A stretch of 62,992 nt of DNA, filler included, from Kipferlia bialata (GCA_003568945.1; 4 parts of 4 records of this genome joined end to end with filler, not necessarily neighbours in it); one strand, 5' to 3'. Shown: positions 17,211-62,935, numbered from the whole stretch's first letter. Translations and numbers: made by a program. Notes: generated by a model from the sequence alone, not told the origin.

Positions 17211-18141
17211 TCACACCATGTCTTCTTGGGTAACTGCCTCTCTGTCTCTCTCCTGGGTCTCAGCTGGAGTCTCTGTCTCTCCCTCTCCCTCGTCAGCCTC
17301 TGTCTGACCCCTTTCTTTTTTGCCAGTCTTGACAGGCACTCTGGCGAAGCCAAGGACGTAGCCTGGGTGAGTATAATAAGGGTGAAAGTAGGTATATCGG
17401 TTTGGATACATATTCTACCACTGTAGCAGCCGCACCTGTGAACATTGAGCTCATGAACACCAGGGCCATGATGGCACCGGCACCAACAAGCACGGTGGAG
17501 GCACCTGAAAAATTAGGGGTATATACATATATATATATATACTGAGAGAGGGAGACCCTGCGAGAGAGCATTCAGATAGGGAGATACTAACTGACCAAGT
17601 CATCGGGTATACATGTGGAACTGTACCTAGAGGTATACATATATATAGAGAGAGAATGAGGATCCAGGTGTCACCGTACCTAGCGGGAACAAGAACCCGG
17701 TTGCGATGGGACAATGTGTATATACATATATCATATATATATAGAGAGAGAGGGAGAGTACCTAGAGGGAACAGGAACCCAGTTGCCGCATAGGAGAGGG
17801 GCTCGAGACCCACCCAGCACATCATGAGGGCACCTGAGGGGTAAGATATAATATACTAATATATAGAGTTAATACAGTAGAGAGAGAGAGAGAGAGAGAC
17901 CCACCCAACACATCATGAGGGCATCAGTATACACTCAAATAATGACTGTTCCCTACCTCCCCTCCCCCCTCTCTCTCTCTACATAGGTACACTTATCAAT
18001 ATACATACACTCACCCATGACTGTGCCCATCCCCCCCTCCGGTGCATGTCCCTGGAAGAATGTCATGATGAGGGGCATAGAAGCACCATCGATCACGCCC
18101 TGAGCATAAGGTATCTGTATAGAGATAGATAGAGAGAGGTC

Positions 18142-18178
<37 letters not shown>

Positions 18179-18481
18179 TATGGTGAGGGGCATGGATGCT
18201 CTACACAACCCACCATGATGCCGGATGGCAGGATCATCTGACACACATATGGTATATGGGTATGTAATAACTATACGTATTACTGTATACATATGTATCA
18301 TATATACACTATGTATACACTCCATGTATATATATAAATGTATATATATATTAATTCTCCACTCACCATGATACCGGATGTCAGTATCATCTCCCACACA
18401 TATTGTATAGAGGTATGTAACAAGTATATGCTATACTCTGTATACATATGTATCATATATACACTCTGTATACACTCCATG

Positions 18482-18513
<32 letters not shown>

Positions 18514-18738
18514 CACTCACCATGATGCCGGATGTCAGGATCATCTCCCACACCAGGGGTGCCAGACCAAAGGCAATGAGACCCAGGCAGTAGGACAGGG
18601 TCATACTGGGAGTAAGCAAATAACATAGAGAGGAAGATATATATATATATATACATATAGGGAGAAAAAGAGAGATGCTATGAGACCCAGGCAGTAGGAC
18701 AGGGTCATTCTAGAGGTAAGGAGAGAGAGGTTACATAG

Positions 18739-18789
<51 letters not shown>

Positions 18790-19298
18790 ATGAGGCCCTG
18801 GGAGTAGGACAGGGTCATGCTGGGAGTGAGAGAGATACAAATGACAGAGGGAGGAAGATATATATATATAGACGGATATATATACATATACATCAGCATG
18901 CACCCACCCGATGACCAGTGCTATGATGCGTGAGTCCTTGACCCCCTCCCCAGAGACCATGGCCCATATGCCACCCACCATGGAGAACAGACCATAGGCA
19001 GATACCTACTGTAAGTAGTTAGAACATATACACAATATATATATGTGGTTATACACTGTATATCGAAACACACATATGGAGAACAGGCCATAGGCAGAGA
19101 CCTCGGATGAGACAATATGTGATATGTATGCATATATAGGATATGTGTTTTACAAAATGGAGTACATATACTGAATTGCATATATTGAACTCACCAGTCT
19201 ACCATAGTCAAGTGCGTCTCCTCCAATCTCCTTCTTGATCCTGTATGGCACACCCACAAAGAAGGGGCCGGAGAACACAAAGTTCTGGACGCACATGG
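17211..19298 (-). CDS. MFS-type transporter, C-terminal half (5' part beyond contig end)
   Basis: Spliced translation MCVQNFVFSGPFFVGVPYRIKKEIGGDALDYGRL-VSAYGLFSMVGGIWAMVSG...QGHAPEGGMGTVMGALMMCWVGLEPLSYAATGFL...GASTVLVGAGAIMALVF. About 6 TM helices with an MFS TM10-11 loop-like motif. Confidence 0.75.
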
Positions 19299-19644: not shown

Positions 19645-19944
19645 ACCCCTTTCCCTTTCGCTTATACTTATGTAGATATTCCCATTGTCAATCCACAGTG
19701 TGTACTCTCTCCCTGTCTCTATTCATCCTGAACTGTGCTTGTTGATATATACCCCCAGCTGTGCACCTGTCCAACCGATATCTCTCTCCCACTTCTTCCA
19801 TGAGACACACACGTATATGTATACATGTTTGTGTTTCTTAACCCCAGCTGTGCACCTGTCCATCCACAAGCACAGTGTACTATCTCTGTCTCTCTCTCTC
19901 TCTCTCTCTTAGTTCATATATGTATATATACCCTTAACCCCCAG

Positions 19945-20145
19945 CTGTGCACCTGTCCATCTACAAGCACAGTGTGTACTCTATCAGCCCACCCCTCCTG
20001 TCAGTGTCCCTGGCCAATGTCCCACTATGCACAGGTATATATACACACACACATAAGTATAGTGATATAGTTATTTGTATATGATATACTAATACTACTC
20101 CTGTCAGTATCACTGGCCAATGTCCCACTGTGCACAGGTATATAT

Positions 20146-20192
<47 letters not shown>

Positions 20193-21597
20193 GATGATAT
20201 AGATTCCGTATATGATATACCAATACGACTCCTGTCAGTGTCCCTGGCCAATGTCCCAGTGCACAGGTGTATAAGTGTATATATATATATACATAACGAT
20301 GCGCTGCAGAGCAGGATATTCAAGATGGATCATTTACTCGCAATGCACCCCCCCCCCCCATTCCACTTCCGCTGTAATGTCTTTATACATATTTGTATAC
20401 AATGAGGATTGCATTTCCGCTAATGTTATCTGACCCAACTGCTTCGTAAACTTTTAATTAGAATAATTCAAAGAAGCTAGATGAATGAGTATATATAGCA
20501 CAGTAATGCATACTCACTCAGGTGCCTGTGTGCGCATGGGTGGCGAGAGGTGCCTGGTACAGGAGGTGGTGCCAACCAACTCTACCCCTGCACTAAGCGC
20601 TTCTACCCCTCGTGTCCATGTTGTGTCCCTCTCCAGTGACACCCCCACTGACATTGTGGTGCATCCCTCTGAGGCACCGGTGTCAAGACCATGTGTGGTT
20701 AGAGTGCCTAGGGGTGAGAAGGTTTCTATAGGAACTAAGGGTAGTAAGGGGACTATGGGTACTATGTCCTATGTGGGTCCCCCCTCTCACTTGACTGCCC
20801 TGACTGAGTTACTCACAATGGGTGTCACTAGACCAGGGGAGGCTATAGATGCAGGTACCCCAAGAGCAGATGTGCATGAAGTATATACTAATCATTATAT
20901 ACTAATCATTATATAAGCATTCACCCCCAGGCGCTCTAGTCTATGGCCCCGATCGATGCATGAATTCGAATATTATTATATCATAATAGTACTCTATATA
21001 TATTCACTTCTAGGCGCCCTTGTGTATGGCCCCGAGGGTACAGGTCGCAAGACCCTCATCAAGTCAGCATGTGCAGAGTGTGGGTACAGTGTACATGAAG
21101 TCACACCAGCAGAGCTAGGAAGCAGCAGTGGTACGTATATATTGTGATGATGGAGATGTTCTTTTCTCTCTCTCCTTATTTTCTCTTCCTTTTATGTCAT
21201 TCTTCTCTTCGCATCTCTCCCCTCTCCCACCCTTTCTCTTATCCCTCAGGTCTTGGTGACGTTGAGGCCGCTGTTCTGGCAAAGGTGGGAATAATAGTGA
21301 TTGGGTGTTTATGTTATATATTATTTGTTTCCATACCTCCCAGTACATATTCAATGCACTGTTCGATAGTGACACCTCTGCCCCTCCCTCTCTACTATTT
21401 TGTGCGTATATCTACCCTCATCATCAGGTTAATAGTGTATGTGATGCAGCTGTCACTCCAACTGTCCTGTTGATCCATGACATCCACACCCTGTGTCCAT
21501 CTGAGGGGGCAAGGGGAGTAGGAGCCGTATCTGGTGTGCGCCTAACATCTGTATTGTGTCAGGTACGATATATTTAATATATATTCATACATACATC

Positions 21598-21629
<32 letters not shown>

Positions 21630-22718
21630 GAATTATACCCTGTGTCCCTCTGAGGGGGCAAGGGGGGTGGGGGCAGTGTCTGGTGTTCGCTTGACATCAG
21701 TTATATGCCAGGTATGAGATGACATTCATATATACGTATATACATGTATATATACATATGCAGTGTGTCCATTGGAGAGCAAGTGGGAGGTCGGGATTAT
21801 TGTTTGATATGTAGAGCTTCTATAGTAATTTTGTGTGTTTGTCCGTTTCCCTACTCTAGGCGCTGGACACTGTCAGGACCCGTTCCTCCTCAATCATGCA
21901 TATATATATATTTGTTTTATGTATTATGTCCATTTGTTGAGCTGTTATTAATGCTAGGCCTTGGACACTGTCCGTACCCGTTCCTCCTCCATCAGGGCCA
22001 AGACCCTTGAGGCAGGGGGCACAGTGGTACTCTCAGCTGCACCTGTCATTGTCATGGCTACAGCAGGTGTGTATACAATACATGTATATACTTATACATT
22101 GGAGTATATGTGTGTGGGACATCTTCATACTACATTTCATATGTATACTGGGATTGTTCTTGACCCTCACCCACAGGTGGAGAGACTGACGTGGCACAGG
22201 GGGTGTACAGGCCTGGAAGGTATATACATATTTAATATCATGTATATATTAGTGTAAATGTAGTAGATGTATACATATCTATGGGGTGAGACTGACGTGG
22301 CACAGGGGGTGTACAGGCCTGGAAGGTGAGGTCTTTCTCTCTGTGTACTTTCTTCTTCTCTCTCTACTAATTGCGATATCTTTACCCCTAGGCTAGGTGT
22401 GAGGATTGGCACTGCCAGCCCTTCAGTCATCGAGAGAGAGGCCATTCTGAGACAGGTATATATATAAACACTTACACATTGATACCGAAGACATTAAGGG
22501 AGAGAGATGGGTGATACTAGTCGTAGTGGCTATTCTGATCTGTGTTGAATGTGAGTGTGTCCGCAGTGTCCATTAATACTCTACTGTATCTAACTTAATG
22601 CACTACTATATATACTGTCCATTAATCACAGGTCTGGTCCAATGTGTCCAGTGACACAGATGCAGTCATCAGAGAGACAGCAGCTAGGTACCTGCCTTGA
22701 ACATATATATATATATAC

Positions 22719-22756
<38 letters not shown>

Positions 22757-23538
22757 TTTTCACGTAGTAATGTAGTAATATTCAATATATACGATATTAA
22801 TTCATACTGTGTATTCTGCATCCACCCTCTTAACACGCAGGACCTCTTTCTTCAGTGGGGCTGACCTAGTTGGCTTTGCATTATTGTGTATATGTACTGT
22901 ATATATATAGGGACTATCCTACCTCCCCTTATTTCAAGAGTATTCTAAATATTCTTATAGATAGGACATCCGGCTTCAGTGGGGCTGACCTTGTTGGCCT
23001 AGTGGCCTCATGCCCATCGGACCCCATGTCTGCACTGGGAAGAGTTAGGCCAAGTCTCATTAGACAGGTACTATACATTTGTATATTTAGGTATATGACT
23101 GTCAGACCGAGTGGGGTGAGTGAGACCATTATTGATTATTCGTGATATCATATACCCTACACTTATCTCAGGTTGTTCTGGTCGAGCCACAACAGGATGC
23201 ATACATACCAGGGTACGAGATACCTGTAGACACCGCCGCATATATATATATATATATATACGAACTATTTCATCATATGCTCTGTGTGTGTATGTATCAT
23301 ACCACTAACCACCAGCCCCTCCTATGACAGAGTCAGACAGCACCTGGAACTGCTGCTGGACCCTTCTGTGTTTGAGGTACCCTCTCTCTCTCTCTCTCTC
23401 TATATATATATGTATACTGACTCTAGGCCTTTGGATTTGAGGTAACTATCTATCTATATATTACTCATACATATGCTGCATGTGTATGCTTTATGCAGTA
23501 TTATCTCCTGGACCCATCTGTCTTTGAGGTATCCTTAC

Positions 23539-23570
<32 letters not shown>

Positions 23571-25587
23571 ATATATATATTTGTTTCTCTATTATTGAGG
23601 TATCCTACTCTCTCTCTATGTGTGTCTCTCTCTCAGTATATATAGTTCATTTATATACTGACTCTAGGCCTTTGGTATGGAACCTAGCAAGGGTGCCCTG
23701 CTCTATGGACCATCAGGCTGTGGCAAGACAGCACTGGTCAGACAACTCGCAAGGTATAGTATATATCAGTATATCAGTATATTTACATTTACACATGCTT
23801 ATATATATATAGTATGTATAGTATATGGGCCATCGGGCTGTGGCAAGACAGCACTGGTCAGACAACTGGCGAGGTATACATTCTATGCATGAGTATTAAT
23901 ACACCGAGTCGTTATCGTGTGTACTACTTGTATTGAGTACCAACGATCAATTTCCTAATATGAATGTCAGTTATCCTTAGCAGTAAACATTTGCTACACT
24001 CCTTAGTACTATCCCAATATCGGCGAGTACCAGGGCAAGTTCACCTTCTTCCTGGTGTATCTATATATATATATATATATACCTGCACATATACACATAT
24101 CTATGTATATGTATTCTTATATATCCTAATATCAGCGAGTACCAGGGCAAGGTCACCTTCTTCCTGGTGGATGGCCCATCCCTCTTCAGCCCATACTACG
24201 GAGAGACAGAGGCCGCACTCGCTCGGTATGTGATATATATACACGGATTAATAATGTACATCGACTTGTTTCAAGCCTGTATCTCACATTCAAAGGTCCC
24301 ATCTGTAGGGTATATATATTCGTTATTATATATAGTAGTAGTAGATTTATTTACCTACACCAGCGTCTTCTCCCGTGCCCGCTCTGTAGCCCCATCTGTT
24401 GTGTTCCTAGACAACGTGGATGCATTGGCACCAAGCAGGGACAAGGAGGGAGGGGGAGAGGCCAGTGGAAGGTAAACGTATATGGTATAGATAGTAAATA
24501 CGATATATCATGATATATATCAGTGGATGCCCTAGTATGCCCCCACCAGGGACAATGCGTGATTATTATTTACCCATGAGTGTATTTCTACTTATACCCT
24601 AACTCCCAGAGTGCTGTCTGGCCTCCTTGCCGAGATGGACGGTGCATACATATATATCTATGTACTATGAGTGTTATATATATATATATCTATACTTCAT
24701 ATATTGACCCCCAGGGTGCTGTCTGGCCTCCTTGCCGAGATGGACGGTGTGCAGGAGTCAGCCCCACTTGCAGTATTCGCAGGTAGGGATGTTTCTCTCT
24801 TTCAATACAATATACTATATGCTATATACTATATGTGTATATGGATATAATATATTTCATCCACTGGTAGTATTCGCAGGTGGTGTGTATCCTTAGCAGG
24901 ATTATATATGTCCCAAATAGTATATATACTATGTATATAGCATTGTAATCATTGTACTGTGTTTCTCTATTGCACATCCTGTTATATTGCTCTATGGTAG
25001 TATGTCTATAGGCATAGTTCTATACTATATACCCGTTCACTTCTCCTTACCCCAGCCACCAACCAGCCCTGGGCACTGGACTCAGCCCTGATCAGACCAG
25101 GTATGTAATACTATACATTAATATACAGATATATATGTAGTGTCCATGTAATTATACACTATTACTGCCCTGGGCACTGGACTCAGCTCTGATCAGACCA
25201 GGTGTGCATTACTATATATTCATATACATAGATATATGTAGTGTCCAAAATTTTTTTACTATTCCTGCCTTGGACACTGGACTCAGCACTGATCAGACCA
25301 GGTATGTATGACTATGTGTGTGTTTTCGACCTATGAATAATTTTGTGTGTATGAAATAGTAAGTAATATTTGTATTGATATATGTGTAATATGGGAGCTA
25401 TAGTCATCCCAATGTACTGTTTGGTGTATTACCCTGATCTGACACGATATATAAAGTGTCTCATAAGGTAATCAAAAATCACATTTAAACGCCTCTCCAT
25501 ATATTAATACGCTTTTTGAATACCTTACTCCAGGCAGACTGGACGATAGCATCATGGTGGGGGCACTCTCAGGGGACAGGTACATAG

Positions 25588-25634
<47 letters not shown>

Positions 25635-26207
25635 TACATATGTATACTTATCCATATATACATATGGTATATAAGTATCATGGTCGGGGCACTCTCAGGG
25701 GACAGGTACTTAGAAGTATATACATATATACATATATATATGTATATATATGTATACTTATACCTGATACATATACATATGATACTGAAGTATCATGGTG
25801 GGGGCACTCTCAGGGGACAGGTACCTTGATGCATATAGACTATATATATATACATACATGTATAGATATGATACTGAAGTGTCGTGGTGGGGGCACTCTC
25901 ATGGGACAGGCACAACGCCGCATACGCGGATTTGATTATTATGCACTCTACCTCGTACCCTTCTTTTCAATCCTACTGAAATATATATAATTGTAGCAGG
26001 CAGTAGAGATTATACAATATCCTCACTCCCAGGCTGGTGCAGGCTGTCTCTGCCGCCACTGAGTCAGTGACAATTAAGGGTGTAGAGAGAGAGGGTGTAG
26101 AGGGTGTTGATAGAGAGGAGCGTCTCGAGCGTATCACTGCCTCCCTGCGTACCAGTGGCATCCTCCACTCTGAGTGGCTGCCATCTGATGTGTGGCACAC
26201 AGGTACC

Positions 26208-26238
<31 letters not shown>

Positions 26239-26696
26239 GAGCCTTTTCTACCCCCAGCCAGACACGTTGCCAGGTCCCAGAAGAAGGACTATACCGATGC
26301 AGAGGGAGAGGGAGAGGGAGAGGGAGAGGGGGAGGGGGAGAGAGAGACTGTCACCACAGATACAGTTGTGTCTGCCCTGCTACAGGTATGCAGATATATA
26401 GTGTGTTAGCTTAGTTTTATATAGTAAATACTATATGTGTTACGTATGCACAATGTTTTTCAATTATAATAGATAGTAATTTAGTATTAAAGTATTTATT
26501 CAATTAATAATAATTATTTTATTTTATTCAATTAATAATAATTATTATCAATTATATGTCTCACTCCAGGCCTTAGTTTAATATATTGTATATTAGTTAT
26601 GGATATATATTATATCAATTATATGTCTCACTTCAGGCCTACCCCACTGTCAAGGGCGCTGCTGCCTGGACAGAGTACAAGAGATGGGGGGCATAG
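19945..26696 (+). CDS. Double-AAA+ ATPase of the CDC48 clan, most like SPATA5L1/AFG2B; 5'-partial, about 20 exons
   Basis: D1: [32 protein letters not shown]2: [79 protein letters not shown]. Stop TAG at 26694-26696. Confidence 0.85.
25056..25910 (+). repeat. Tandem exon-end + 5' splice-site repeats (3 units, then 4 units; period about 90-125 nt)
   Basis: CACTGGACTCAGCNCTGATCAGACCAG|GT ends at 25100, 25201 and 25301. GGGGCACTCTCAGGGGACAG|GT ends at 25579, 25705, 25820 and, degenerate, at 25909. Confidence 0.95.
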
Positions 26697-26940: not shown

Positions 26941-28260
26941 TTAGAGGATGACCACGGGGGCGTAGGCGTTGTACCACATGACAGAGGCGGGGGCCTGGAG
27001 TAAGATATATAAATCAATACAAGTACCAAAAGATACACATATAGATAATAGTGAAGAGAGGATGTATGTTTACCTGGTACTGGTATCTGGCCATGAGGAC
27101 CTCCTTGTTGCACTATATACATATACACTATATATATGTATATGTGTATATACAGACATATATACAGATATACATACATATACACTATATATATATATAT
27201 ATATATATAACATACCTGGTACTGGTATCTGGCCATGAGGTCCTCCTTGTTGCACACCACAACGTTGAAGGGTCTGGGGGTGAGTGAGAAATGAGAGGAA
27301 TTAGACAGTGAGGGAGAAAGAGAGAGAGAGATATGCCTCACCTGAAGGAGAGCTTTGCCAGGTTGAAGTAGCCAAGGCCGAAGGGGATTCCAATGATGGT
27401 GCAGCAGCAGATGGCACCCACAATGAAGAACATGATGGCTGGAATAAGGNNNNNNNNNGCAGCAGATGGCACCCACAATGAAGAACATGATGGCTGGAAT
27501 AAGGGTGTAGAGGTGGGGAGAGAGAGAGAAAGAAAGAGATGACTCCTATCATGTGGATTGAAGGTGAATCACGGTATATACACTACACTCACCCATCCAC
27601 CACCCGATGAAGATCATCCAGAAGACGTTCATGCAGGCAGCACATCCACTCCTCTCATAGGGGGACTGGGGCCTAGGGGTTAGGCATATATATAGAGAGG
27701 GAGAGAGAGCGAAATACTGAGAGTTCTAAGGGGACTTGGGGGGTGGGGGGAAGAGAGACTATACATACCTGTAAAGGGCCTTGCCGAAGGGGAATGCAGC
27801 GAATCCAGCCACCCTGAGGAGACCCACGCCGATGGGGGCACCAATGATGGAGATGCAGCAGCTAGGGTGAATGTATATATATATAGAGAGAGAGAGAGAG
27901 AGAAACAGAGAGAGATGGGGGCACCGATGATGGAGATGCAGCAGCTAGAGAGTGAGAGGGTAAGAGGAATGAAAGACAAAGAGAGTGCTTCAACCTGAGG
28001 GTCACATTGAGTAGGGGACGCCACACACACTAGCTACCATATAACGACCCACGCAACCACACACTAAACGCGCTCCCCAAACTACAAATGATGCAAGTAT
28101 AGCAACAATACGGCCGCTTTCACAAACTGACAAGAGAGAAAAGACCATAAATAGCTCTTAACCAGACGTACAGGATACCGACAATGCCATAGGTCAGGCA
28201 CAGGATCTCTCCTCCGAGGATGAACCACAGGATGTTCAAGAATATAGCACAGCCGTCCAT
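26941..28260 (-). CDS. YccF-domain (inner-membrane component, two repeats) protein, multi-exon
   Basis: Repeat 1: MDGCAIFLNILWFILGGEILCLTYGIVGIL-CISIIGAPIGVGLLRVAGFAAFPFG. Repeat 2: MNVFWMIFIG...GAICCCTIIGIPFGLGYFNLAKLSFRPF. Both fit the N(I/V)xW..GG...TIIGIP.G......L.PFG consensus. Confidence 0.88.
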
Positions 28261-28623: not shown

Positions 28624-28991
28624 ATGTCTGACTCTGATGTCCTTGCTGACACAGTCGATGTGACAGGTGCAGAGAGAGAGAGAGAGGTTGAGAGTGAGAG
28701 GGGTGTTAGCGAGAGTGAGACTTCACAGTCAGTGGAACCAGTGAGTGAAACAGGCAATCATGGAGAGGAAGGAGTCGAGACCGATGGAAAGAGAGATGCT
28801 GTGGAGGAGGGAGAGGGCGAGGGCGAGGGCGAGGTTGTTGTGGAAACCCTGGCTGACATTGATGCCGAGATGGACAGGGAGAGAGAGAAGAAGGGGGAGA
28901 GAGAGAGGGTGGAGAGTGCCATCGAGTGCCCCGTATGTCTGTGCACACCCACCAAGCCAATAGTGCTCAAGTGTGGGCACCTGATGTAAGT

Positions 28992-29024
<33 letters not shown>

Positions 29025-30915
29025 CACCTCTCTGCTATTGTCCTTTAGCCCAATTGAGTGAATGGTATGGTAGAGATCTTGCTGGCTGTTCTATCTCCTT
29101 CTCTCCCCATCTCATTTCAGGTGCTATAACTGCCTTCAGGGTACTCTCACTTCCCCTCTTCATATTGTATTCTCTCTCTTTCTCTCTCCCTCTATATCTT
29201 ATTCTCAGGTGCTATGACTGTCTCCAAGACTGGTGGGCAACACAGACTGCTAACCAGGTACAGTATCTATACACGTCCCTTCCTCTCCCGTGTCAATATC
29301 CCCTGTTGATTCGTTCTTTCTCTTTCTGACTTCTATTCTCTCTCTCTTACTCCCACACCCTTATATGTTGTGTGCCCCCTGTTCTCTCTCCCCCTTATAC
29401 CAGTGCCCCCTCTGCAGGGCTGTGCTGGACCCAGAGTCAGATGTCATACCAGTGTATACAGGCATGTATTATAGCATTACGTATACTATATGGATATGTT
29501 GTGTAGTCACATGGTCTTCGTCACTTAATACCATGTGTAAGTAATTCTAATGGATCATTGTTTGCAAATCGAGCACCCTTATCCAACCCCCAGGTGGTGC
29601 CTCAGCAGAGGTACCGGCCCAGTTCTCAGATGAGCTCAGGTATATAATCAATATATTTATATATATATATATGTATATATGGACGTGATCTATTTCAAGT
29701 CATTTGTATTTGTTGCTCTCCTGTATCAATATATTGTCTACTGATATGCAATGTGACTAATTAGTATCCTCGCACTATAGTGTCAATTGAAGTATATATA
29801 TACCACATGTTTAGACACTCACCCTTCAGGCAGAGGCGCCAACTATATTCATGTATATTGTCCAATGAATATATGTGTATCATGTATATTTACTTACACT
29901 CCAGGCAGCGGCGCCAGAGAGACCTGGACAGACGCATGAGGACCAATGGAAGGAACAACAACCAGAGGATTAGGTAATGGTAACTGGGGTATACACTGAG
30001 AGAGTATATTATAGAGTGTTAGTATTAAGGTGATTGAATTGGATACCTGAGGACCAACGGCAGGAACAATAACCAGAGGATTAGGTATTACTTATAGTAG
30101 AAATAGAGTAGACTATTCATATCTTCCTTGTGTGACTCTCACTGTCAGGATGATGGCCAACGGGGCCATGTTCGGATTGGGAGGTATGTTGTGTATACAT
30201 ACATAGATTCTTACAATCATCAATCATATATGAGAAAATGTAGGGTATATATGTAGGGTATGAATATGGACAATCAGAGTATATGTAGTCAGTACCGAAA
30301 TACCCTGTGTTAATGATATTCCCTTTCAACCCTCTCTTCCCCCTCACCCCAGGTGCCGGCTTCTCTCGTTATTACTCTGTAGGTTCTTCTCTCTCAACTT
30401 ATATGTGTGGTTGCAGTATTTGTCCTATTGATGCCTCACCCCAGGTGCAGGGTTCTCTCTCTCATTCGGTGCTGGTGGTGGGGGATTCCAGGTACGCAGA
30501 GTATTGTATTAATTTAGTATGCTGCGGCCCCTGATTACTGCGATGGTATCTATACTGATAGCCTACGTTCGCAGTTAAACAATGTATATTGTGCTGACTT
30601 TCAGGTCAGACGTCACCAGACTGGCATAGGGGGTCTTGGTCAGGTGAGAAATGGACTCAAATATACTCCTATGTAACATTAATGATACTCAGTATCGTTA
30701 CTATTAGCTAAACTGTGACTTTAGTTAGTGTATTTGACCGTTAGATGATCGGTGGCATGGGTCAGCCTCAGGGTGCCAGGGAGCAAGGGGGGCTAGGAGG
30801 AGAACAGGACGAGGAGGCCTTCAGAAGAGAGGTACTATACATATATATACATATATATTAATATATGCCTTTAGAGAGAGAGAGGGGACGAGGAGGCATT
30901 CAGAAGAGAGGTACT

Positions 30916-30962
<47 letters not shown>

Positions 30963-31627
30963 TTAAGAGAGAGAGAGAGAGGACGACGAGGCATTCAGAA
31001 TAGATATTCAATATGTACATATATTTTTATGTCTATTTATTCTTAAGGGAGAGAGAGGGGACGAGGAGACATTCAGAAGAGAGGTACTGTATCCTACATA
31101 CTTGTGGTTCATCCTTATTGTATGTGTGTAATACTATATAGAAGATAATAATATTATGTTTGAAGACGTTGTGTGTCTCTATTCCTCTGATTCTGTAGGT
31201 CAGACAGCGCCAGAGACGCACCATGCTAGTGATCCTGGCCAATATTTTATTGGTTGTCCTCCTGTCCCTGGCCTCGTACCTGTTGCCATCAGACGGGGCA
31301 GTGCTAGGTTAGAATACATACTGGCTCTCATATATAGTATCCTTATAGTATAGAATACATAATCTAGAACAGCAAGATGCATTATGAATACTGTGACAAT
31401 CTAACTCTCATGCACTGCTCAGCAATATAATATATGCATTTTGTATCTAGTTATGATGTTTTACCCCCAGGCCCTGCTCAGCAAGAGGGTGGAAGGACTA
31501 TATGATAGTAATATGCATTGTTAATTCAGTTATTTATGTGACTATCTCACCCTCAGGCCCTGCTCAGCAAGAGGGTGGAAGGAGACGGGTGAAGGTGTCG
31601 CCATTTGGGTTCGGGATAGTGTTCTAG
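28624..31627 (+). CDS. C3HC4 RING E3 ubiquitin ligase, RNF5/RNF185/RMA-like, with a C-terminal TM anchor
   Basis: ECPVCLCTPTKPIVLKCGHLM-CYDCLQDWW...-CPLCRAVLDPESDVIPVYTG. Hydrophobic tail MLVILANILLVVLLSLASYLL. The last exon is uncertain. Confidence 0.85.
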
Positions 31628-34160: not shown

Positions 34161-34534
34161 TCGGAGACTTCCGATTGTACAAAGACGTACCAAGAGGCAG
34201 ACATGTCCACGAGAGTGAGATCTGGCCTACGTATGAGTCCCACAATTAAGGCTGACTCTGTCACATGCAATCTACCAATAACAGGAAGAAAAGGCTTTCC
34301 GGTGATCACACTATTCTTCTCTATCTCTATTCTACGACATGGTTGTGACAATTACATACACACTCACACACACACGTATCACACGCCTGTCACGTTCTGC
34401 TACTAACTGGGCCTCTCTCTCTCTCTCTCTCACTCTCCTGATCTAGTTTTTCTCCCTCTCCCTCTTCCCACCAACCGGACACTTCCTGGGCCCTTCTACT
34501 CTCTCTCTCCTTCTCTCTCTCGCTCTCTCTCCTA

Positions 34535-35476: not shown

Positions 35477-35509
<33 letters not shown>

Positions 35510-36761: not shown

Positions 36762-36809
<48 letters not shown>

Positions 36810-37168
36810 ACATCGATAATGTGACCACTGACGCTGAGGTCAGAACAAGTATAATACCAGTATAATACCAGTATAATACCAGTGAATATACAATATACTA
36901 TATACTATATACAAACATGTATTGAGTATATGTACATATTGTGGCCCATAACACTAACGTGAAAGGGGGAGGGAACACTACCTATAGTATAGAGTCCATA
37001 TAGTTGTGAATATAGTGTGCATTATGTGTATATGTAGTTCTCAATGTATAGAGGTGCAGCATATAGATTCTATATGATATAGAATCATTGCACTCACTCT
37101 GAGCCTGAGAAGAATATGGTCTTGCCATTGGCCGAGACAGCGACGTTGGACCCGTACTCTAATCGGTT

Positions 37169-37199
<31 letters not shown>

Positions 37200-37878: not shown

Positions 37879-37922
<44 letters not shown>

Positions 37923-37985
37923 GGGCACCCGATAACCATGACACCACCTGGGCGTCAGTATATACATATAAACAGTGGTAGATGA

Positions 37986-50699: not shown

Positions 50700-52494
50700 T
50701 CTCAGGAGTAGCTGTGAGTATACAATTTGTGTCCAAATATACCTGCAATAGATTTCAAAAGAATCTTCTCGCCTTGCTGTGTGTTCTTAGAAACAGCTAT
50801 TCATTCTAGCACCAAGCCATACCCAGGTATCCCAACAAACATACGCTAACATAAATTCAATGAATTATATTCATCATGAGGTTCAAGGACGGTGTGAATT
50901 TCTATTTCATATGTGTGTATTACACCCATAAGAACTGTAACAACACAGATTCTCTATGTCAATCAGTCACCGGGCCTTCCTGTCGAATATCCTGGCCAGG
51001 TCAAGGACAATGGCTAGGGTCAGTACACATATATTACTCAACTACTAACCATACTACATATGTACACAAACGAGGGCTAGTGACAGTAGTAGTAATGATA
51101 TCTATACTCGTCATAGATGTATTTCATCACAGGTGTGTCAAGGACAATGGCTAGGGTTAGTGTATCCATCTATCTAATGCATATACATGTCACAGAGAGA
51201 GGGAGCGAGAGAGCCAAGGACATTTGCTAGCGATTGATATATCCTCTACTAATCACCAAAACATGCTCTTGGACTCTAGTTGATTATACGTTCTGACACC
51301 CCCCTTGGTAGGGCGATGTACCTCTATACCCAATCATTCTGCTTAGTATAGTATATATGTATATATGTATATGTGTGTATATACCTTCTGATACACCCCT
51401 TGGCAGTGCGAGGCCAGGGAACAGCTCTACGTACTGTCGACCTGAGAGTAAGGAGAGACATTACCAGAAGCCCTGTCGATATAGGGCAATTATAGAGACG
51501 AGAACCAGCCAGTGGTGAGATCAGTAACATATATATATACATACATATAGAGAGAGATGGCCATATATGTATAGAGTGGTGATGAGCAACCAGTATACAC
51601 ACCCCAGCAGTGATAAACAGCATATATCCATTCATTCTACTGCACTATTCACCAATATATATGTATATATATGTATATATATATGTATGCATATGCACAA
51701 AGTCGGTTTCCCGCGCAGTGTGCGTCACTCCTCAATAGGGGTGAGTGTATATATAGATTGTGAGTATACATTGTCAGAGGGGGAACACCTGATACAGTAA
51801 TATCAGATATATATCTAGTTCTATACCTGCGCAGTGTGCGTCACTCCTCAGTAGGGGTGAGTGTGGGGGCAGGAGCCTGCTATCCAGAGAGGGATAGTCA
51901 CTCTCACTCTCACTCTCTACACCCATATCACTCTCTTCCTTATCACTTTCACTCGCAGATACCACGTCAGCCGACTGGGGCTCTGCACCTCCTGTGGGTG
52001 ACACCACAGTATCTGCAACGGTATCACTCTCGTGACTCTCGGGGATAGCTAGCAAGGCACTATCACCATCACTCTCTCCCTCCCTATCTACACCCCTTCT
52101 CTCTCTCTCTCTCTCTCTCCCTCCCCCTATGTCGTCTATGGATGCACTGGGCAGAGACAGTGAGTGTGGGTTGACATGTCTACGGGGGGGCAGTCGCTCT
52201 GTGACATCTCTACCTACGTCCTGGGATCAGATTTCATAATACTATTATATGTATAATACTAATACTAATACTAATCATACTTATAATACTAATACATATA
52301 ATACTAATACATATAATACTAATAGTACTAATTAATGTATAATACTATTATATAGTATATATGCAAGGCATGTATATTCATTAATATAGGTATATATACT
52401 ATATATGTATATGGAGATATATATGAAAAGAGTAAAATCTATGATACATATACATCATTCATACCTGATCTCCCTCTGCATCTCTGTCTAGAGG

Positions 52495-52536
<42 letters not shown>

Positions 52537-55500
52537 CATGGACATACATACCATAAATATTGTATACACATATACAATGTATATACCTGATCCCCCTCTG
52601 CATCTATGTCCAGAGGTGTCAGGGCATGTCGACGGGTGGGGTCATAACCTACGATAAGACAGTCTACTATGTCGAGATAAGTCTCAATATTGGTACAAGT
52701 GTAAACTTCAGCATAAACCCATCATGCATCATGTTTTCCATACCTTTAGACTCTGAGTATGCCTGCATCTTGTGTGTACCATTAATATAGTATATATTTA
52801 CATATATATATATATAATATCGAAGGTTTAATAGTATACAATACATTATTGATAATAGTACATTATTATAGTATACAGTATATGTATACCTTTAGACTCT
52901 GAGTATGCCTGCATCTTGTCCGTGAACAGGGCACATACATATATGTATATGTATAGTAAATTAATGTATATATATTCATTATAGTACATATAGATATATG
53001 TATCAATAGTATACATGTACCTTTTGACTCAGAGTATGCCTGCATCTTGTCTGTGAACATGGCATCAAACTGAGAGCCTGATGGTAAGAGAAATACCAGA
53101 GAAATAGAAGAGAAGAGGATTGTACAATAGACATTAATATACCAACATTATTAGGAATTACGGTATCAAACTGGGAGCCTGGGGTAAGAGACTGAGAGAA
53201 AAATACAACCACAGAGACGTGGATGCTAGGGAGAGAGTCTGAGGGGAAGAGAAATAGAATAAGAGTACAATAATGATAGAAATGGAAGAGGTGTCATCAA
53301 AGTGGATATCTAGACAAGCACTGTCAATACCTGACCCTGGTAGCACAGCACATGCCGACACAAACACAGAGGCACACAGGAGATTGCTGGGGTTATATTA
53401 CAAATATTGATGTGGGTATATATGAAGAGAGAGTATATATATAGTATAAATTCATATATATGTGTGTGTATACATATACAAACACAGATGCACAGGGGAG
53501 GTTGCTGGTATCTATAGATATAGAAGTACGATACTATATACATACTACTAGTAGCACACATACTATACTGCATTAACATAGTTCATATACCTCGTTCTAC
53601 TCAGGCCACTGAGTGCTGCATGTGCACTTGTGGGTGGTGCAATACTCTCTCTCTCTCTCTCTCTATAAGTGCAGTCCATTCATGTATATAGTATGTACAC
53701 CTTGTGCGACTCAGACCACTGAGTGCTGCATGTGCACTTGTGGGTAGTATATGCATATATACATATATATATATACATATATGAGTAACATGTATATATA
53801 CACACAACACACCTAGTTCTGCTGAGGCCACTGAGTGCTGCATGTGCACTTGTGGGCAGCAACAGGGGGACAGCACAGAAACCAAGGGCTGGGACCTAGA
53901 GAGTCAGAGAGAGTGACCACGAGAGAGAGAGAGAGAGAGGGAGGGAGAGAGAGAGAGAAGTAACAGGGGGACAGCACAGAAGCCAAGGGCTGGGACCTAG
54001 GGTAACTAATGGACATCTTCTAAGTATTCACATAAAATACATAGAAAGAGAGAGACTACATATCCTACCACACCACACTATATACTACTCAGCACATGTT
54101 CGCAAAATCAGCAAAGTTTATATGTATTCTGTATATATATGTAGAGAGAGAGAGACAGGGACATGGAGCACATGTTCGCACATTCACTTAATAGATTGAA
54201 GTGAATACACATCTTTCTGAAGCTTCCTGTGACTGATGAGTCTGAGGCATATGTTACTATGTGTACAATACATACATACACATGTGTCTTTATGCATATA
54301 TATATACTTTCCTAAATGACCCCACTACTGTGACATATGCTACTCTACACACACATATATATATTTCGTATACCTTTCTGAATGACCCCACCGCTGTGAC
54401 CGATGAGTCCGAGGCATGCATATACACTATAATTTCGTATATATATATACATATATGCTACCCTACCTTCCTAAATGACCCGACTGCTGTGACCGATGAG
54501 TCTGAAACAGAGATACACACTATATATACTATATATATACATATATGCTACCCTACCTTTCTGAAGCTCCCCACTGCTGTGACCGATGAGTCTGAGGCAG
54601 ACAGCATCACCTTGGCTGGGGGGTGAGGGAGGCAATGAATATCTATATATGCATATATGTGTGTATGACTGTATATACACATATATATGTGGCTCAGGCA
54701 GACAGCATCACCTNNNNNNNNNNNNNNNTATACACATATATATGTGGCTCAGGCAGACAGCATCACCTTGGCTGGGGGGTGAGGGAGGTGGGTATGGTGG
54801 TATAATGCAATAGTATTTATACATAATTAGTAGAGGAATCTATCTATGTATAGTCCGAGGCAGACAGCATCACCTTGGCTGATGGGTGATAGAGGTGGGT
54901 GGAATATATAGAGAGTGGTAGTGTATATACATGAAGTGTGGGTTTGTGTCAATATACTGTCGGAGACAGCCACCTTGGCTGATGGGTGAGAGACGAAAGA
55001 GACCCACACACTTATGTGATGCGACTAAAACTATCAAAGTAGACCTTGATTTATATACATGATAACATGAGAGACTTCTAGACTTCATACCCAGCATGTT
55101 TTCGGGTCTCTTGTGCTACTAGTATACCCATATACATACTCCAATGGTACTAGTATGCCTCATACAATACATAGTCTCTATACCTAACATGTTCTCGGGT
55201 TTCTTGTGCAGAAGTGTCCCAAACACCCTGGAAGGGTGAGTGTATTGTTCCATGTGCATGAGAATAGTGCAGATGTATGAATATTGCATAGGACTTTTGT
55301 CCAGCAGTGTCCCAAACACCCTGGAAGTGAGAGGAACACAAGAATAATCAGGAGCGTAGGATTATTGAGACAGATATTGTAGTTGTATGTTGCCCCAAGG
55401 CCGCTTGTTCCTCCCGCTGGCGAGGCAGTCTATGCAGTTAAGTATGTATCAAAAGTACATACCTCTGCATTGGGCACTTGTACTCTTTATATACACACAC

Positions 55501-56600
55501 GCACTGTCCATATATACACAACTTCTATCAATACACTTGTGCCTATAGAATGTATATACTATGGTACACCTCTGCATTGGGCTCTGTTAATACCTATATA
55601 ATACCTATTTCTATATATATGCATGTTTTTATCTATATATATATATACAATGTCACTCCCTATACCTCTGCATTGGGCTCTGTGTGCACTTGTACACACA
55701 CTGTTCATCAAGGGCAGCCAGTAAGGATCCGGCGACTACGGTCAGATACAATACATGTAGAGCATGATATTGTATACTTATATATACACTATATAAGTAT
55801 ACACTGCTCATCAAGGGCAGCCAGAAGGGAACCCGCGACTATTGTCAGAATGACTGCGACTATAGATAGGGGGATCTATACATACTATACATACCTGTGA
55901 GGGTGGACATGTCATACAGCTAACCCCATATACACACTATACACATATACACACATATACATCCATATTCCACATGTACATCCCATATCAGTGTACACAC
56001 ATACCTGTCAAAGTGAACACCAAATAGGTCAACACCAGCGCCATGCCATATAGTAACATCATGCACCACAGCTGAGACCCATTGGGGATCTGACAGTTAG
56101 GATGACACAATGAGAATGAGTCTATCTGTAGCATGTGTATATGTATTGATATATACATGAGTAGATAGAGAGTGTTAGCAGCATGCACCAGAGCTGAGAG
56201 CCATTGGGTGACTGCGAGTTAGCATACTTATATATTGACGGAGCAGAGAATCAAGTGTCATCACTATATCTAGAGCTATGGGATGAAGAGATCACACGTA
56301 TATATAAAGACACACTCACCACCACGCTGAATGAGAGTATCTCCAGGGCACAGATGACACCGAGGGATCGGAGGAAACGCCTTCGCCTTGGTATTAGATT
56401 GGTATTAGAATAGGAAGCAGAAAAGGAATAGACTGTTTGACATATTGGCAATTATACGAATGACATCAAGCATTGAAGAGAGAGAGGGGGGGGGGGGGGG
56501 GATCGGAGGAAATGACACCTCTCAGGGTCAGAGAAACTACAAGACAAATCAGAGAGAGAAAGATCACGAGATAGAGACGAATATGACGCTTCTCTCCCAG

Positions 56601-56633
<33 letters not shown>

Positions 56634-57146
56634 CTATATCTATCTATCTATATATATATATAAAAATACATATGTCATAATGTCTATACCTCACATGCTG
56701 TACTGTCACCACTGGCCCTCTGTGGCATGATGTGAAGGAGATATCAAGGCGGGGACACAAGTCTTTGGCCTGGTGTAAGGGTGAAACACCATATATATAT
56801 AATGAAAAACATGTATAAGGGATATGTGAAGGAGATGTCAAGACGGGGACAGAGATCCTTGGCCTAAGAGTGAGATAAGTATGAATATGTATTCAGTGAG
56901 ATAGTATGAATATGTATTGTGTATATTGTATATAGTGGGATCAATATATGTGTGGCATGATGTGAAGGAGATATCAAGACGGGGGACACAAGTCTCTGGC
57001 CTAAAGGTGGAAAAGAGAATACAAAATCCAGAAAACATAGTGAACACAATGAAACATGCATAGGGCACGATAGAGAGAGAAGGGGGATATTAGAGAGACC
57101 AGAGAACAGAGAGTGAACACTGGGGAGAATTACTAGAGGCTGAGTG

Positions 57147-57183
<37 letters not shown>

Positions 57184-57310
57184 TGAGGAGGAGAGAGATA
57201 GGACAAGGACCCAACCAGTCTTAGATCAGCAGAGAGGGAGAGAGAGAAAGTCCAGTACTACAAACACACCTTCTCTGCAGCCTGTTCTGCCAGCGACAAC
57301 CGCCACATAG
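50700..57310 (-). CDS. Highly fragmented multi-exon membrane-associated protein of unknown function; both ends uncertain
   Basis: Exons RRRFLRSLGVICALEILSFSV, IPNGSQLWCMMLLYGMALVLTYLVFTLT, VAGSLLAALDEQC, VFGTLLHKKPENML, AKVMLSASDSSVTAVGSFRK, VPALGFCAVPLLLP, and an acidic exon at 51828-52220. Frames are supported by synonymous differences in the echo copies. Confidence 0.6.
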
Positions 57311-58653: not shown

Positions 58654-59059
58654 CTGTGACATCCTCAGAGTGTCCACATGAGGCACAGTCCATGATCAGG
58701 GCACGGGGCTTCTCCTCGGGCTGTCCACGGAAGTGGGTCTCGGGGTTGTTGCACTTGTGGCACAGCACAAAGGTCAGGATGTACTGCTTCAGGTGGGTGT
58801 TCAGGTCAAGGAAGGTGGGGGATCCGTTGAAGGTGGCGAATCCACTGCTCTCCTCATACACAGAACGGGCTCCAAGAGACTTTCCGAAGTACTTGGTGAG
58901 TACGTGGGGGTCACGGCCAAGGGCAGCAGCAAGAGCCCTCATGTTGTCGATAACGGCCTTGATACCGTTACCCCTACCAACAGACCTGACCTCGATCTCA
59001 GGCATCTTGTAACGGTAGGCGGCATCGTCCGAGAAGTTGATGTTGATCTCCTTCACCAT
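58654..59059 (-). CDS. EIF5: Translation initiation factor eIF5, N-terminal (GAP/zinc-ribbon) exon; remainder lost at contig start
   Basis: DAAYRYKMPEI..VGRGNGIKAVIDNM..A.ALGRDP..KYFG..LGA and C4 ribbon FVLCHKCNNPET...DCASCG. Donor at 58653. Confidence 0.93.
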
Positions 59060-59660
59060 CTCCTAGGGTGAGAAGAAGACCCAATGGGCTATAACATGAC
59101 CTATAACCACACAAATGAAGGCAATGCGAGATATGGATCAAAATACAGCCCTCACAGCCCTCAGAAACACACATTGAGCATAACTACTATGCTAGAACAC
59201 AATATATACGTCTCAAGCAGCAGTACCTAGTCTATACAGGTGAACTGGGCAGACGAAGGGAGGATGCGCTACCTGGGCCTCTATCCGACAATCCTCCGAC
59301 TATCCGTTTCGGAGAGTTTGGGTCTGGATTTTGTGACTCTTTGTGTATAAATGCCAGCCCCCCACTCTGGATGACACTCATATACTGTACAATAAATATG
59401 ATATGTTGTGTCTACTACCACCAGCAGCCACCTCACTATCTCTTGACTCTATTCTTACACCCACCTATAGGGCTCCCGTACTACACCTCCATCCATCCCC
59501 AGGTCATAATAATGAAACTCCTCTCACTCTCAATCAATAGTCCCAGGAGTCCCTATAGTGCAGCTATACCACAACACAACTACGTCCACACCTACGTCTG
59601 CTTCCTCCACTTGCACAACAACATACAGTCACTAAGTCATACACACACACTCCTCACTCT

Positions 59661-59691
<31 letters not shown>

Positions 59692-59700
59692 CCTCTCTGT

Positions 59701-60972
59701 CTAGGGCTTGATCCTAGGCAGACCCAGGCCAAACTTGATGCCATACTGGGTGGAGGGCTGTGGTTAGACATATTCACACACACAACTATATAGAGGGACA
59801 ATGAGTACTAGAAGAGTACCAACAAACGGCCTCTAGCACTCTATATTGGTTGGATAATGATAGCACCATACCTGGTTGCCCTGTGACATATATGAACAAG
59901 AACATATGGCATCAATATGCAGCATATATGGTATACCTGGTTGCCCTGTGAGTCTCTGGTGTCCCTGGAGCCATAGGGCAGTCTGCTGCCAGCCTGGGGT
60001 TATAGATACACATATATACATATATACATACATATCATTACAAGATAGAGTACATAGGGTATTATATACACCTACATACTCAGATGCAGAGTTTTCATTT
60101 ACGGTGTAATATGCATACATACATATATATATATATATATATCAATACTCAGTATGTACCTGTGTCCGTGTCTGGCGCCTCGGGAAGCCTCTGTGGACAT
60201 GGTTGTTGGACCCACTCCTAAGGGTAAGATATATAATAATGAATATACTATATATATGTGTGTGTGTGTGTCAGCGTACCTTGCTCCGAATGGGATAGGT
60301 GGCACTGGCTTGCCCTTGCTGGGGTCCCTTCTCTCCCTGTCTCTCTCTCTCTCCCTATCTCTGTCACGGACACTGCTCCTAGGGGTCAATATGAATATGT
60401 ATATACATATACATACATACTAAACACTACCAATGGGATCAAGGGAGATAGATGGATAGGTAGTGGGTGAGAGAGGGACAATACATGTACATACCTGCTC
60501 TTGATCTGGCTCTCCCTGTCCCTTTCACGCATACTGCCCCTAGAAGTCAGAGAGAGAGAGCGAATAAGTTTCATTTGTAGCTAGGCACTTGGCCTCGCTC
60601 CATCCAAAAATTATGGGAGATGGAAGACTAGGGTGAGAGGTACATTATGTGATACGATACCTGCTCTTGATCTGGCTCTCTCTGTCTCTGTCACGGAGGC
60701 TGCCTCTGAAGGTGAGACATACTATCACATACAAGACGGAGAGTCATTGATAATGAAGGGTCAAACACAAAAGCAGCCTCAGAGAGACTATGAAAGATGT
60801 ATGCACATATGCTAAGAAAAGACACTAACCTGGACTTGATCTGACTCTCTCTCTCCCTCTCCCTTTCAGCCCTATCTCTCTCTCCACGCAGACTGCCTCT
60901 GGGGTCAAACACAGTGAATTGAGGGTCTAGAGAGAAAGAGGGAGAGGGAGAGACAGCGAGTAGGAGAAGGAA

Positions 60973-61007
<35 letters not shown>

Positions 61008-62935
61008 TGGGGTATACAAACCTGCTCTTGATGCTGCCTCTGTGCCTCCCTCTCTCTCAAACACAAGAAAAATAAGGGTCTAGAGAGAGAGAGAGTGATA
61101 TATATATATATCTAACTAACCTGCTCTTGATGCTGCCTCTGTGTCTCTCTCTCTGACTCTCGTGCACGTGGTCACTACGGTGAGGATGGAGAGAAACAAT
61201 TAGGTCATAATAGTATATGTAAATATTATCATTTACTACGGTGAGGATGCAGAAATGGATAGGGTTCACTCATAAATACATACATAGATATACATAAATA
61301 TTAATACATACCGAGAGGTGTGCAGGGCATTGGACGAGGCATACTTGGTGGAGGCACCGTGCTTGGCAACACTTGGGGTGAGAACCACTTAAGGGTGTAG
61401 AATGAGAGAGAGAGAGAGAGAGAAGAGTATCGCTTACCTAACATGCTGCCCATGTCTACTACCCCCTCTGTCTATGCTGCCGACCCCACCCACATGACAT
61501 GTATATACATATATATATATATATATATATACATATTAATACTAAGTAGTACCTTACGTGCTGTCCATGCCTACTGCCCCCTCTGTCTATGCTGCCCACC
61601 CCACCCATCTGGCCCTGGCCATACAGACCCAGACCGGGGAGGGTGTACCTAGGGTAAGAGGGGATATATACTAATAAATGCACTAGGGAGGGGGGGGGGG
61701 GTTGATCCAGAATACATTAGAGAGAGACAGACTTAGACCGGGGGTGTACCTAGGGGTTAAAGGAGATACATATGTATTTGTATACAAAGAGGGGGGGGGG
61801 GAGAGAGAGAGAGAGAGAGAGAGAGACTATAAAAGAGAAACAATACTATACAATTCTCATACCTCTTAGGCTTGTCATCCCTGCCGTCCCTGCTTCTACT
61901 CTCTCTCTCCCTCTCCCTCTTGTGCTTCTCTCTCTCCCTGGGGGGTAAGAAGGCAATAACTATACATATACACATTCGCTCAATTACTGTCAATAATCAG
62001 TACTAGCATGCTATATTATAAACAGCTCTATCTATATGCGGTATTTATACACTATCATGTACCACACCCATACTGTCTCTGCCCATGCTGTTCTGGGGGG
62101 ATGCAATACAAATAGAAATATGTATATATATATATATATGTATATATGTATATATAATGACCATATATACACTATCATGCACCACACTCATACCTGTCTC
62201 TGCCCATGCTGTTCTGGGGGGATATCGAGTGGAGGCCGTGGCTGAGGTTAGTATATATATGTAACAGAACATAGAGTGTTATGTATATGAGAGAGGGATA
62301 TACATCATATAAGGTGATATGGATAGATACAATGCATATGAACGGTACGTACCCAGGTGGTGAGAGGTTGGGGTCAAGGGAGTCTCTTTCTCTCTCCCTC
62401 TCCCTCTCCATACGCTCCATACGCTCTCTGTCACGCTTGCTCTGGCGGCTGGCTCTCTCCACCCCTCTCTCCCTCTCCCTCTCCAGCTTGGCCTCTCTCT
62501 CTCTCTCCCTGTCCCGCTCCCTGGTCAGCTGTTGGGTGGCAGCCCTGGGATTAGACATACAAATAGATATACTGAGAGAGACACAGAGAGAGTGAGCTGC
62601 TGGGTGGCAGCCCTGGGGTAAGGTATATATATATATATATATATGTATAATTATATATATATAGAGAGAGAAAGAGAGAGCATGTCCCGCTCCCTGGTCA
62701 GCTGCTGCGTGGCAGCCCTGGGGTAAGATCATTAGATGAGAATCTACCAAATACAACAGTAAAATAATAGAGAGAGAGAGAGAGAGAGTATGTCCCGCTC
62801 CCTGGTCAGCTGCTGGGTGGCAGCCCTGGAGTAAGAGGTATAGAAATGTATATATATATAATTATATAGAGAGAGAGAAAGAGAGAGAGAGCATGTCCCT
62901 CTCCCTGGTCAGCTGCTGGGTGGCAGCCCTGGAGT

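Follow-up and report, generated by a model that had tools for sequence, protein, structure and literature searches.

Intronic copies of exon ends in Kipferlia bialata genes differ from their live exons with an excess of silent changes

Local duplication across splice sites is known from mutually exclusive tandem exons, which diverge with a silent bias and need both splice sites in each copy, and from Rogers-type intron gain, in which the tandem duplication needs an AG|GT register. In the variable-number tandem repeats (VNTRs) of exon-intron boundaries, tandem units start in the exon, repeat the donor site, and are alike over the whole unit. Here we analyze partial copies of exon ends, called echoes, in the introns of a 62,992-nucleotide (nt) stretch of DNA from Kipferlia bialata (GCA_003568945.1). 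This stretch, referred to as the window, consists of four contigs joined by spacers, and all counts cover the window alone. The free-living fornicate K. bialata has 124,912 introns in its annotation (PMC5874029).

Two further systems are close to the echoes. Human CBS 844ins68 is a tandem duplication of a partial exon with one splice site; splicing at the distal site yields a normal mRNA, and other alleles have been proposed as partners of the spliced-out copy in gene conversion (PMC2630376). CBS 844ins68 is a single locus whose dead copy bears a harmful replacement, whereas echoes occupy half of the introns in many genes, are depleted of replacements, and reach about 50% silent divergence. 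In the hypervariable fungus Schizophyllum commune, recombination is limited to conserved exons, with crossovers keeping to exons when the parents differ by 14% (PMC4209137), and allelic silent diversity is 0.13 to 0.20, the higher value being given in PMC4576712. This is the process that our favored explanation of the echoes needs. The Schizophyllum exchanges are allelic crossovers, and diversity and sex were measured there, whereas we infer both for K. bialata; the available text of the two papers contains no report of intronic exon-end copies.

Exon-end copies in the introns of eight genes

Eight gene models, located on all four contigs, were fixed before echoes were compared, so that the frames were not picked from echo differences. 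They comprise genes for an AAA ATPase, an MFS-like protein, a YccF-domain protein, a RING protein, an FG-GAP-like protein, an LRR-like protein, database protein P0001, and the N-terminal part of P0002. The names MFS-like, FG-GAP-like, and LRR-like denote presumed, unconfirmed resemblances, and a Pfam match was absent on the two exons of the LRR-like gene that were checked. Every model has an uninterrupted reading frame, and the introns are of the GT-AG type except for two GC-AG cases. Exact agreement with database proteins supports three of the models: P0001 maps onto one unique 14-exon path, the RING model equals P0003 letter for letter, and the frames at 59937-62544 are confirmed by P0002. 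A single-exon query for P0001 and another for P0002 each yielded one K. bialata protein at 100% identity. The AAA frame is backed by three listed RNA joints and Pfam AAA matches. The YccF frame has a Pfam match on one exon and depends mainly on open reading frame (ORF) continuity, as do the frames of the MFS-like, FG-GAP-like, and LRR-like genes.

Echoes were detected by scoring exon bases only against neighboring introns at a threshold of 13, which let through 3 of 1140 pairs of exons with foreign introns. The detector returned 93 echoes, of which 2 flanking N gaps were dropped, leaving 91 for analysis. The counts also exclude an echo at 16197-16158, whose frame is uncertain, the repeats of whole exons at 60898-60280, a family at 11242-11479 that lacks a gene model, and older echoes scoring under the threshold.

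The 91 echoes are partial copies, 14 to 65 nt each, of the flanking exon end. They form 61 families (41 single, 11 double, 8 triple, and 1 quadruple) in the eight genes, bearing out the claim of an initial annotation that one to four copies occur in at least eight genes on all four contigs. Echoes are present in 44 of the 87 introns and in four further host introns outside the modeled exons; the median intron length is 337 nt with echoes versus 113 nt without. Five other, uncurated models gave 1 echo in 41 introns. The trait is therefore patchy among genes, and its supposed window-wide spread does not hold.

Most echoes (79 of 91) are anchored at a splice site, the layout of an exon-junction tandem duplication, and the site is largely retained (AG in 32 of 36, GT in 37 of 44). 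As the initial annotation had stated, most carry one splice site: a single echo of the 91 reaches both exon ends, unlike mutually exclusive tandem exons, and two have the AG|GT register (GT in the upstream copy, AG in the downstream copy), unlike Rogers-type intron gain. Ordinary splicing therefore cannot use the echoes. Nor do they resemble boundary VNTRs, since likeness is about 93% in the exon part and near background in the intron part; the 30 intron bases beside the copied splice site mismatch at 0.32 to 0.33, versus 0.36 to 0.38 between unrelated introns, and flank identity showed no correlation with the level of silent divergence (rho, -0.14; P, 0.22). A dinucleotide run lies within 30 nt of the free end in 47 of 91 echoes, versus 26% of random intron stretches, which corrects the described fading into such repeats.

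Read evidence came from assembled short-read contigs, which drop rare variants and isoforms, placed on 19460-21718 (2259 bases); the 75-nt echo at 21637 lies outside both DNA and RNA contig coverage. Contig X2, from a run that is not recorded as RNA but presumably is, skips three GT..AG introns. It follows five AAA exons with no other letters and thus contains live copies only. A listed joint takes X2 past echo 20931, and its piece coordinates indicate that it also omits the echoes near exon 19945-20034; it shows the live codons of exon end 19995-20034, not those of echo 20098-20137. P0001 and P0003 also map to live copies only. As with CBS 844ins68, the copy joined to the remainder of the exon is used in the mRNA (one RNA contig, five AAA exons). 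Mutually exclusive tandem exons would have both copies in spliced RNA, of which a contig may miss the rarer form. DNA contig X1 (record 7, 20341-21570), from a run that is possibly the source sample and so not independent, holds echo 20931 together with live exon 21014. Runs X3 and X4 of another sample gave no match on the tested bases, which is evidence neither way.

Silent excess in echo-exon differences

Compared with their live exons, the echoes differ at 122.8 of 649 synonymous sites and 67.2 of 1983 nonsynonymous sites (proportions pS, 0.189, and pN, 0.034). The ratio of nonsynonymous to synonymous divergence (dN/dS) is 0.16 raw and 0.09 in the core, for which free ends were trimmed back to six matches; frame-shifted controls gave 1.6 and 2.9. 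The tally by codon position that the initial annotation had proposed, run on the window, shows a third-position excess (46, 22, and 122 differences at first, second, and third positions, with about 880 sites each). The multi-base switches CGT/AGG, CTA/TTG, and AGC/TCA are present as described. The wording that differences are almost only silent was too strong, however, since the silent share is 0.65 raw and 0.76 to 0.81 with free ends trimmed, and two genes lack the excess.

The neutral expectation first put forward, change at all codon positions, is too weak, because the live exon drifts silently too and decay beside a constrained exon is already about 40% silent. When a decaying copy and a silently drifting live exon were simulated through the same detector, dN/dS was 0.42 to 0.50. 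Bootstrapping by family gave 95% confidence intervals of 0.10 to 0.25 raw and 0.05 to 0.15 core, and the 99.9% upper bounds (0.31 raw and 0.19 core) both fall under this neutral range. With one echo per family, 95 synonymous differences stand against 29 nonsynonymous ones. The earlier view that the echoes were filtered at the protein level is thus upheld against a proper null. Free decay of a dead copy as expected for the CBS type (dN/dS, about 0.45) is not what the echoes show.

Replacements are concentrated at the free ends. In the 79 anchored echoes, pN declines as the free end recedes (0.057, 0.044, 0.019, and 0.000), whereas pS does not (0.16, 0.21, 0.15, and 0.28). More than 24 nt from the free end there are 31 silent and 0 replacement differences (14 echoes, 4 genes). 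The gradient holds in the 37 echoes of at least 30 nt (10, 6, 2, and 0 replacements), whereas pN in a simulation of uniform decay drops merely from 0.031 to 0.023.

Echoes also differ silently from each other, which indicates that the signal is not only live-exon change. In 37 core pairs, which are not independent, there are 23 synonymous and 15 nonsynonymous differences, and private changes in echoes number 14 and 7, respectively; 25% silent is expected in both comparisons. A drift of silent changes to A/T was not seen (40 from G/C to A/T, 43 in reverse; GC at third codon positions, 0.64; introns, 0.38), a weak test because repeats shape intron GC. The BLOSUM scores of replacements were barely above random (mean, -0.3, with 23 of 57 conservative, versus -0.57 and 29%) and were left unused. 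A core difference is absent in 41 of 91 echoes, and some echoes are near a pS of 0.5.

Possible sources of the echo sequence

We propose, giving the idea about equal chances of being right or wrong, that echoes are untranslated, spliced-out duplicates of exon ends whose sequence was acquired, through recombination that pairs only on shared exon sequence, from other functional alleles of that gene. Such a history would start from the arrangement described above, an incomplete duplicate, retaining no more than one splice site, beside a copy that is joined to the exon remainder and used in the mRNA. The first echo may have been born from one-sided or microhomology-ended repair. The exon end of another allele could then pair with the echo or the true exon alike, because introns diverge until they are nearly unrelated, and an exchange running from a point within the echo towards the splice site would install the other allele's live sequence. 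Alternatively, ordinary allelic recombination might replace the live exon beside the echo. On population-genetic grounds the free end would rarely be refreshed, so that true decay would accumulate there alone. Differences between alleles are mostly silent, and the echo-exon comparison would therefore look selected. Of the routes that the initial annotation had considered, capture of other functional alleles fits best, with microsatellites as no more than a putative point of exchange.

This explanation requires a silent diversity of about 0.15 to 0.3 among alleles and recombination between them, both of which we infer. In a toy population simulation with one run per setting, exchange between alleles (or in-place renewal plus allelic recombination) at a silent diversity of 0.2 to 0.3 and a rate 100 to 500 times that of mutation gave a dN/dS of 0.09 to 0.17, a flat pS, and a pN that declines on approach to the splice site, as in the data. 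With a rate of 30, dN/dS was 0.41, and low diversity could not yield a pS of about 0.19 with a low pN. On this basis we regard the echoes as dead copies, the sequence of which would for most of its history have belonged to a working exon on another allele. In metamonads, nonhomologous end joining is missing and meiotic genes are retained (PMC8516963).

Several points weigh against allelic capture. One raw difference in three is nonsynonymous, and a silent excess is missing from the FG-GAP-like gene (7.5 synonymous and 18.5 nonsynonymous raw; 4 and 3 trimmed) and the LRR-like gene (3.5 and 7.5). The simulation is a toy and needs exchange at about 100 to 500 times the per-base mutation rate, and introns near saturation beside a silent divergence of only 0.2 presuppose that introns turn over fast. 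In the Metamonada, sex has yet to be observed (PMC8516963). A second, diverged haplotype contig was not found on the AAA exons at 80% likeness (2.3 kb), and a close second strain was absent from two metagenome scans and protein searches. Fits of Poisson, geometric, negative binomial, and zero-inflated distributions to the silent differences per echo did not separate donor models, leaving a coalescent and a single event unseparated (Akaike information criterion, AIC, 226 to 229). A strong form of the claim is further tempered by two retained echoes that carry or share stops (2 stop codons) and by the 42 anchored echoes shorter than 30 nt, which have 37 synonymous and 38 nonsynonymous differences.

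The donor might instead have been one diverged second gene set, from a past hybrid, an allopolyploid, or an old asexual diploid, which was later lost or homogenized and left the echoes behind; we consider this unlikely, though far from negligible. It predicts the same dN/dS and gradient without ongoing sex and would suit the mixture of echoes lacking core differences and echoes near a pS of 0.5, and a single-rate Poisson model fits about as well as the coalescent (AIC, 228.6 versus 228.0). However, a zero-inflated two-class model gives the poorest fit (AIC, 232.1). Members of a single family also differ silently among themselves, with three states at one site, and no second set was seen in the 2.3 kb tested. 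The echoes would be under direct selection if they were translated in a minor mRNA form, in which an unusual splicing event or template jump leads from within the live exon to the corresponding position of the echo. Protection rising away from the free end, the retained GT and AG, and the invisibility of rare isoforms in contigs all suit this idea, and the available text of PMC6679479 describes a reduced K. bialata spliceosome for which small nuclear RNA candidates were not found. Against it stand the rarity of the AG|GT register and of echoes with both exon ends, five exons of RNA contig without echo letters, and the mapping of P0001 and P0003 to live copies. To our knowledge, no mechanism for such an exon-end jump exists. 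We judge translation improbable, and the unusual splicing mode suggested earlier found no support, with a slim chance left to rare isoforms.

Exchange confined to one chromosome, with echo and live exon continually converting or collapsing and only the live copy under selection, would account for the free-end gradient and the many identical echoes. Its simulated dN/dS was 0.66 to 1.03, though, with pS falling along with pN, and removal of harmful collapse products would, if anything, leave replacements in the echo; we hold it very improbable, as it would survive only under strong selection on the burden of collapse events themselves. The swapping of exon ends envisaged by the initial annotation thus fails within one chromosome and works only with a diverged allele as the partner. 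An assembly artefact, with haplotypes or strains of a nonclonal culture placed in tandem, is likewise unlikely and receives very little weight from us. The differences do look allelic, the two dropped copies flank N gaps, and the check was limited to short-read contigs, possibly from the source sample. Yet one DNA contig joins an echo to its live exon and another spans three echoes, echoes start at unique mid-exon junctions, and a gradient along the echo is not expected from such an artefact. Judged within the window, 62 of 91 echo-exon spans have no repeated 31-mer or long dinucleotide run and 89 of 91 no repeated 55-mer, and the 62 keep the silent bias (92 synonymous and 42 nonsynonymous). 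Plain neutral decay of local duplicates next to a constrained exon suits the FG-GAP-like and LRR-like genes, as well as the short echoes and the free ends; with the 99.9% bounds below the neutral range and only silent differences deep in long echoes, it is scarcely tenable as a general account.

Other features of the window and implications

Coordinates of the genes and selected echoes are collected in Table 1.

Table 1. Genes and selected echoes in the window (syn, synonymous; non-syn, nonsynonymous differences)
Feature	Coordinates	Strand	Remarks
MFS-like membrane protein gene	17419..19298	-	9 echoes, 5/5 introns; 13 syn/10 non-syn; name presumed
5' echo of exon end 17786-17762 (MFS-like)	17680..17704	-	3 silent/0 replacement
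AAA ATPase gene	19945..26696	+	21 exons modeled, 5' end off contig; 20 echoes in 11/20 introns; 34 syn/10 non-syn
3' echo of exon 19945-20034, AG kept	19848..19878	+	others at 19759-19773 and 19694-19711; bypassed by RNA contig
5' echo of exon end 19995-20034, GT kept	20098..20137	+	3 silent/0 replacement; second echo 20229-20258
3' echo of exon 21014-21130, AG kept	20931..20952	+	3 silent/0 replacement; shares one DNA contig with live exon; skipped by RNA joint 20852-21012
75-nt copy of exon end 21488-21562 with GT, the longest echo	21637..21711	+	25 residues same except one Leu/Ile; 10 silent in first 65 nt
3' echo of exon 21958-22066	21860..21896	+	Arg CGT/AGG switch
5' echo of exon end 23353-23376	23505..23528	+	3 silent/0 replacement
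5' echo of Walker A exon end 23704-23753	23824..23873	+	4 silent/0 replacement
Two 5' echoes of exon 25056-25100	25167..25301	+	one Ala codon in three states: GCC live, GCT, GCA
Three 5' echoes of exon 25534-25579	25674..25909	+	upstream junctions similar
YccF-domain gene	26941..27861	-	2 echoes retained: 27944-27914, 27113-27074
Identical copy by 9-N gap (YccF gene)	27459..27493	-	likely scaffold overlap; dropped
RING-finger gene	28624..31627	+	model equals P0003; 5 echoes; 6 syn/3 non-syn
5' echo of exon end 29937-29973 (RING)	30048..30084	+	3 silent/0 replacement
FG-GAP-like repeat gene	34500..38698	-	14 echoes, no silent excess; name presumed
LRR-like gene	39391..42722	+	8 echoes, no silent excess; name presumed
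Gene for P0001 (KIPB_002546)	50967..57308	-	25 echoes, 12/13 introns; 44.8 syn/17.2 non-syn
Three 5' echoes of exon 54615-54557 (P0001)	54227..54511	-	include Ser AGC/TCA switch
Copy by 15-N gap, identical to 54771-54742 (P0001)	54687..54713	-	likely scaffold overlap; dropped
3' echo of exon 55735-55666 (P0001)	55801..55838	-	4 silent/1 replacement
3' echo of exon 56769-56690 (P0001)	56824..56863	-	5 silent/1 replacement; others 56984-56951, 57000-56982
Arg/Glu-rich gene, N-terminal part of P0002	59937..62544	-	8 echoes; 13 silent/0 replacement
5' echo of exon end 61607-61553 (P0002)	61438..61492	-	6 silent/0 replacement
Four 3' echoes of exon 62544-62353 (P0002)	62592..62928	-	AG in all

Several copies lie outside the counted set. 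An exon-end family of three copies occupies 11242-11479 (plus strand), where a search for a gene model found none. Older-looking short echoes below the threshold were seen by eye in a six-frame view on the minus strand at 35590 and 35525 and at 38050 and 38155; the one at 35590 keeps four residues with four silent changes. In the AAA gene, a 15-nt composite echo at 23427-23441 (plus strand) combines an acceptor from the next exon with a donor from the previous exon end and could act as an in-frame micro-exon. The GC-AG introns lie at 29462 (plus strand, in the model equal to P0003) and 36380 (minus strand). At 60898-60280 (minus strand), four whole exons in tandem encode a repeated peptide within P0002; each has both splice sites, and they are live repeats, unlike the echoes. 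P0002 also joins an exon with an eIF5/eIF2B domain (59062-58654, minus strand) to the Arg/Glu-rich gene upstream, and it includes about 550 further residues that were not found in the window. It is probably a misjoined database gene model. The metagenome scan with the eIF5 exon gave 92 pattern matches, none of them confirmed, and the nearest eIF5 relatives have 41 to 51% identity; in the scan with P0003, a candidate locus (L001) was rejected as a 13-residue chance match in bacterial-looking DNA.

Intron-rich genes at 4300-9395 and 43000-47050 (both minus strand) have no echoes in 28 introns, which are short and GC richer. The gene at 6400-9395 may resemble DNase II, although Pfam on one exon did not confirm this. 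An intronless ORF of 779 codons at 12089-14425 (plus strand), with DUF285/BspA-type leucine-rich repeats and a weak PKD match, stands out in an otherwise intron-dense genome and is possibly of bacterial origin. Broken reading frames on both strands at 32240-34250 resemble, by eye, a decayed repeat or mobile element.

The echo pattern was not found described in the open-license literature, and the available main text of the K. bialata genome paper makes no mention of duplication, alleles, heterozygosity, or ploidy (PMC5874029). The pattern is built from known processes at an undescribed scale and stands well above a proper null. Untranslated DNA that looks selected at the protein level poses a genuine puzzle, and in these genes such DNA is both frequent and open to measurement. 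A dN/dS below 0.5 in dead exon copies does not prove translation, and copies of this type mislead gene finders; our own gene-finding run called several echoes as exons. A wider reading, which we hold tentatively and rate a little short of an even chance, is that the introns form a genome-wide fossil archive: thousands of exon-end copies would be renewed from working alleles, would record extreme diversity and recombination, and would keep exon ends ready to swap back into protein. At its far edge, such an archive might even be read by an exon-end switching step of a kind not known so far. Should other alleles prove to be the donors, one assembly would be enough to estimate the silent diversity of the species and would provide evidence of recombination in Metamonada, in which sex has so far been deduced from gene lists only.

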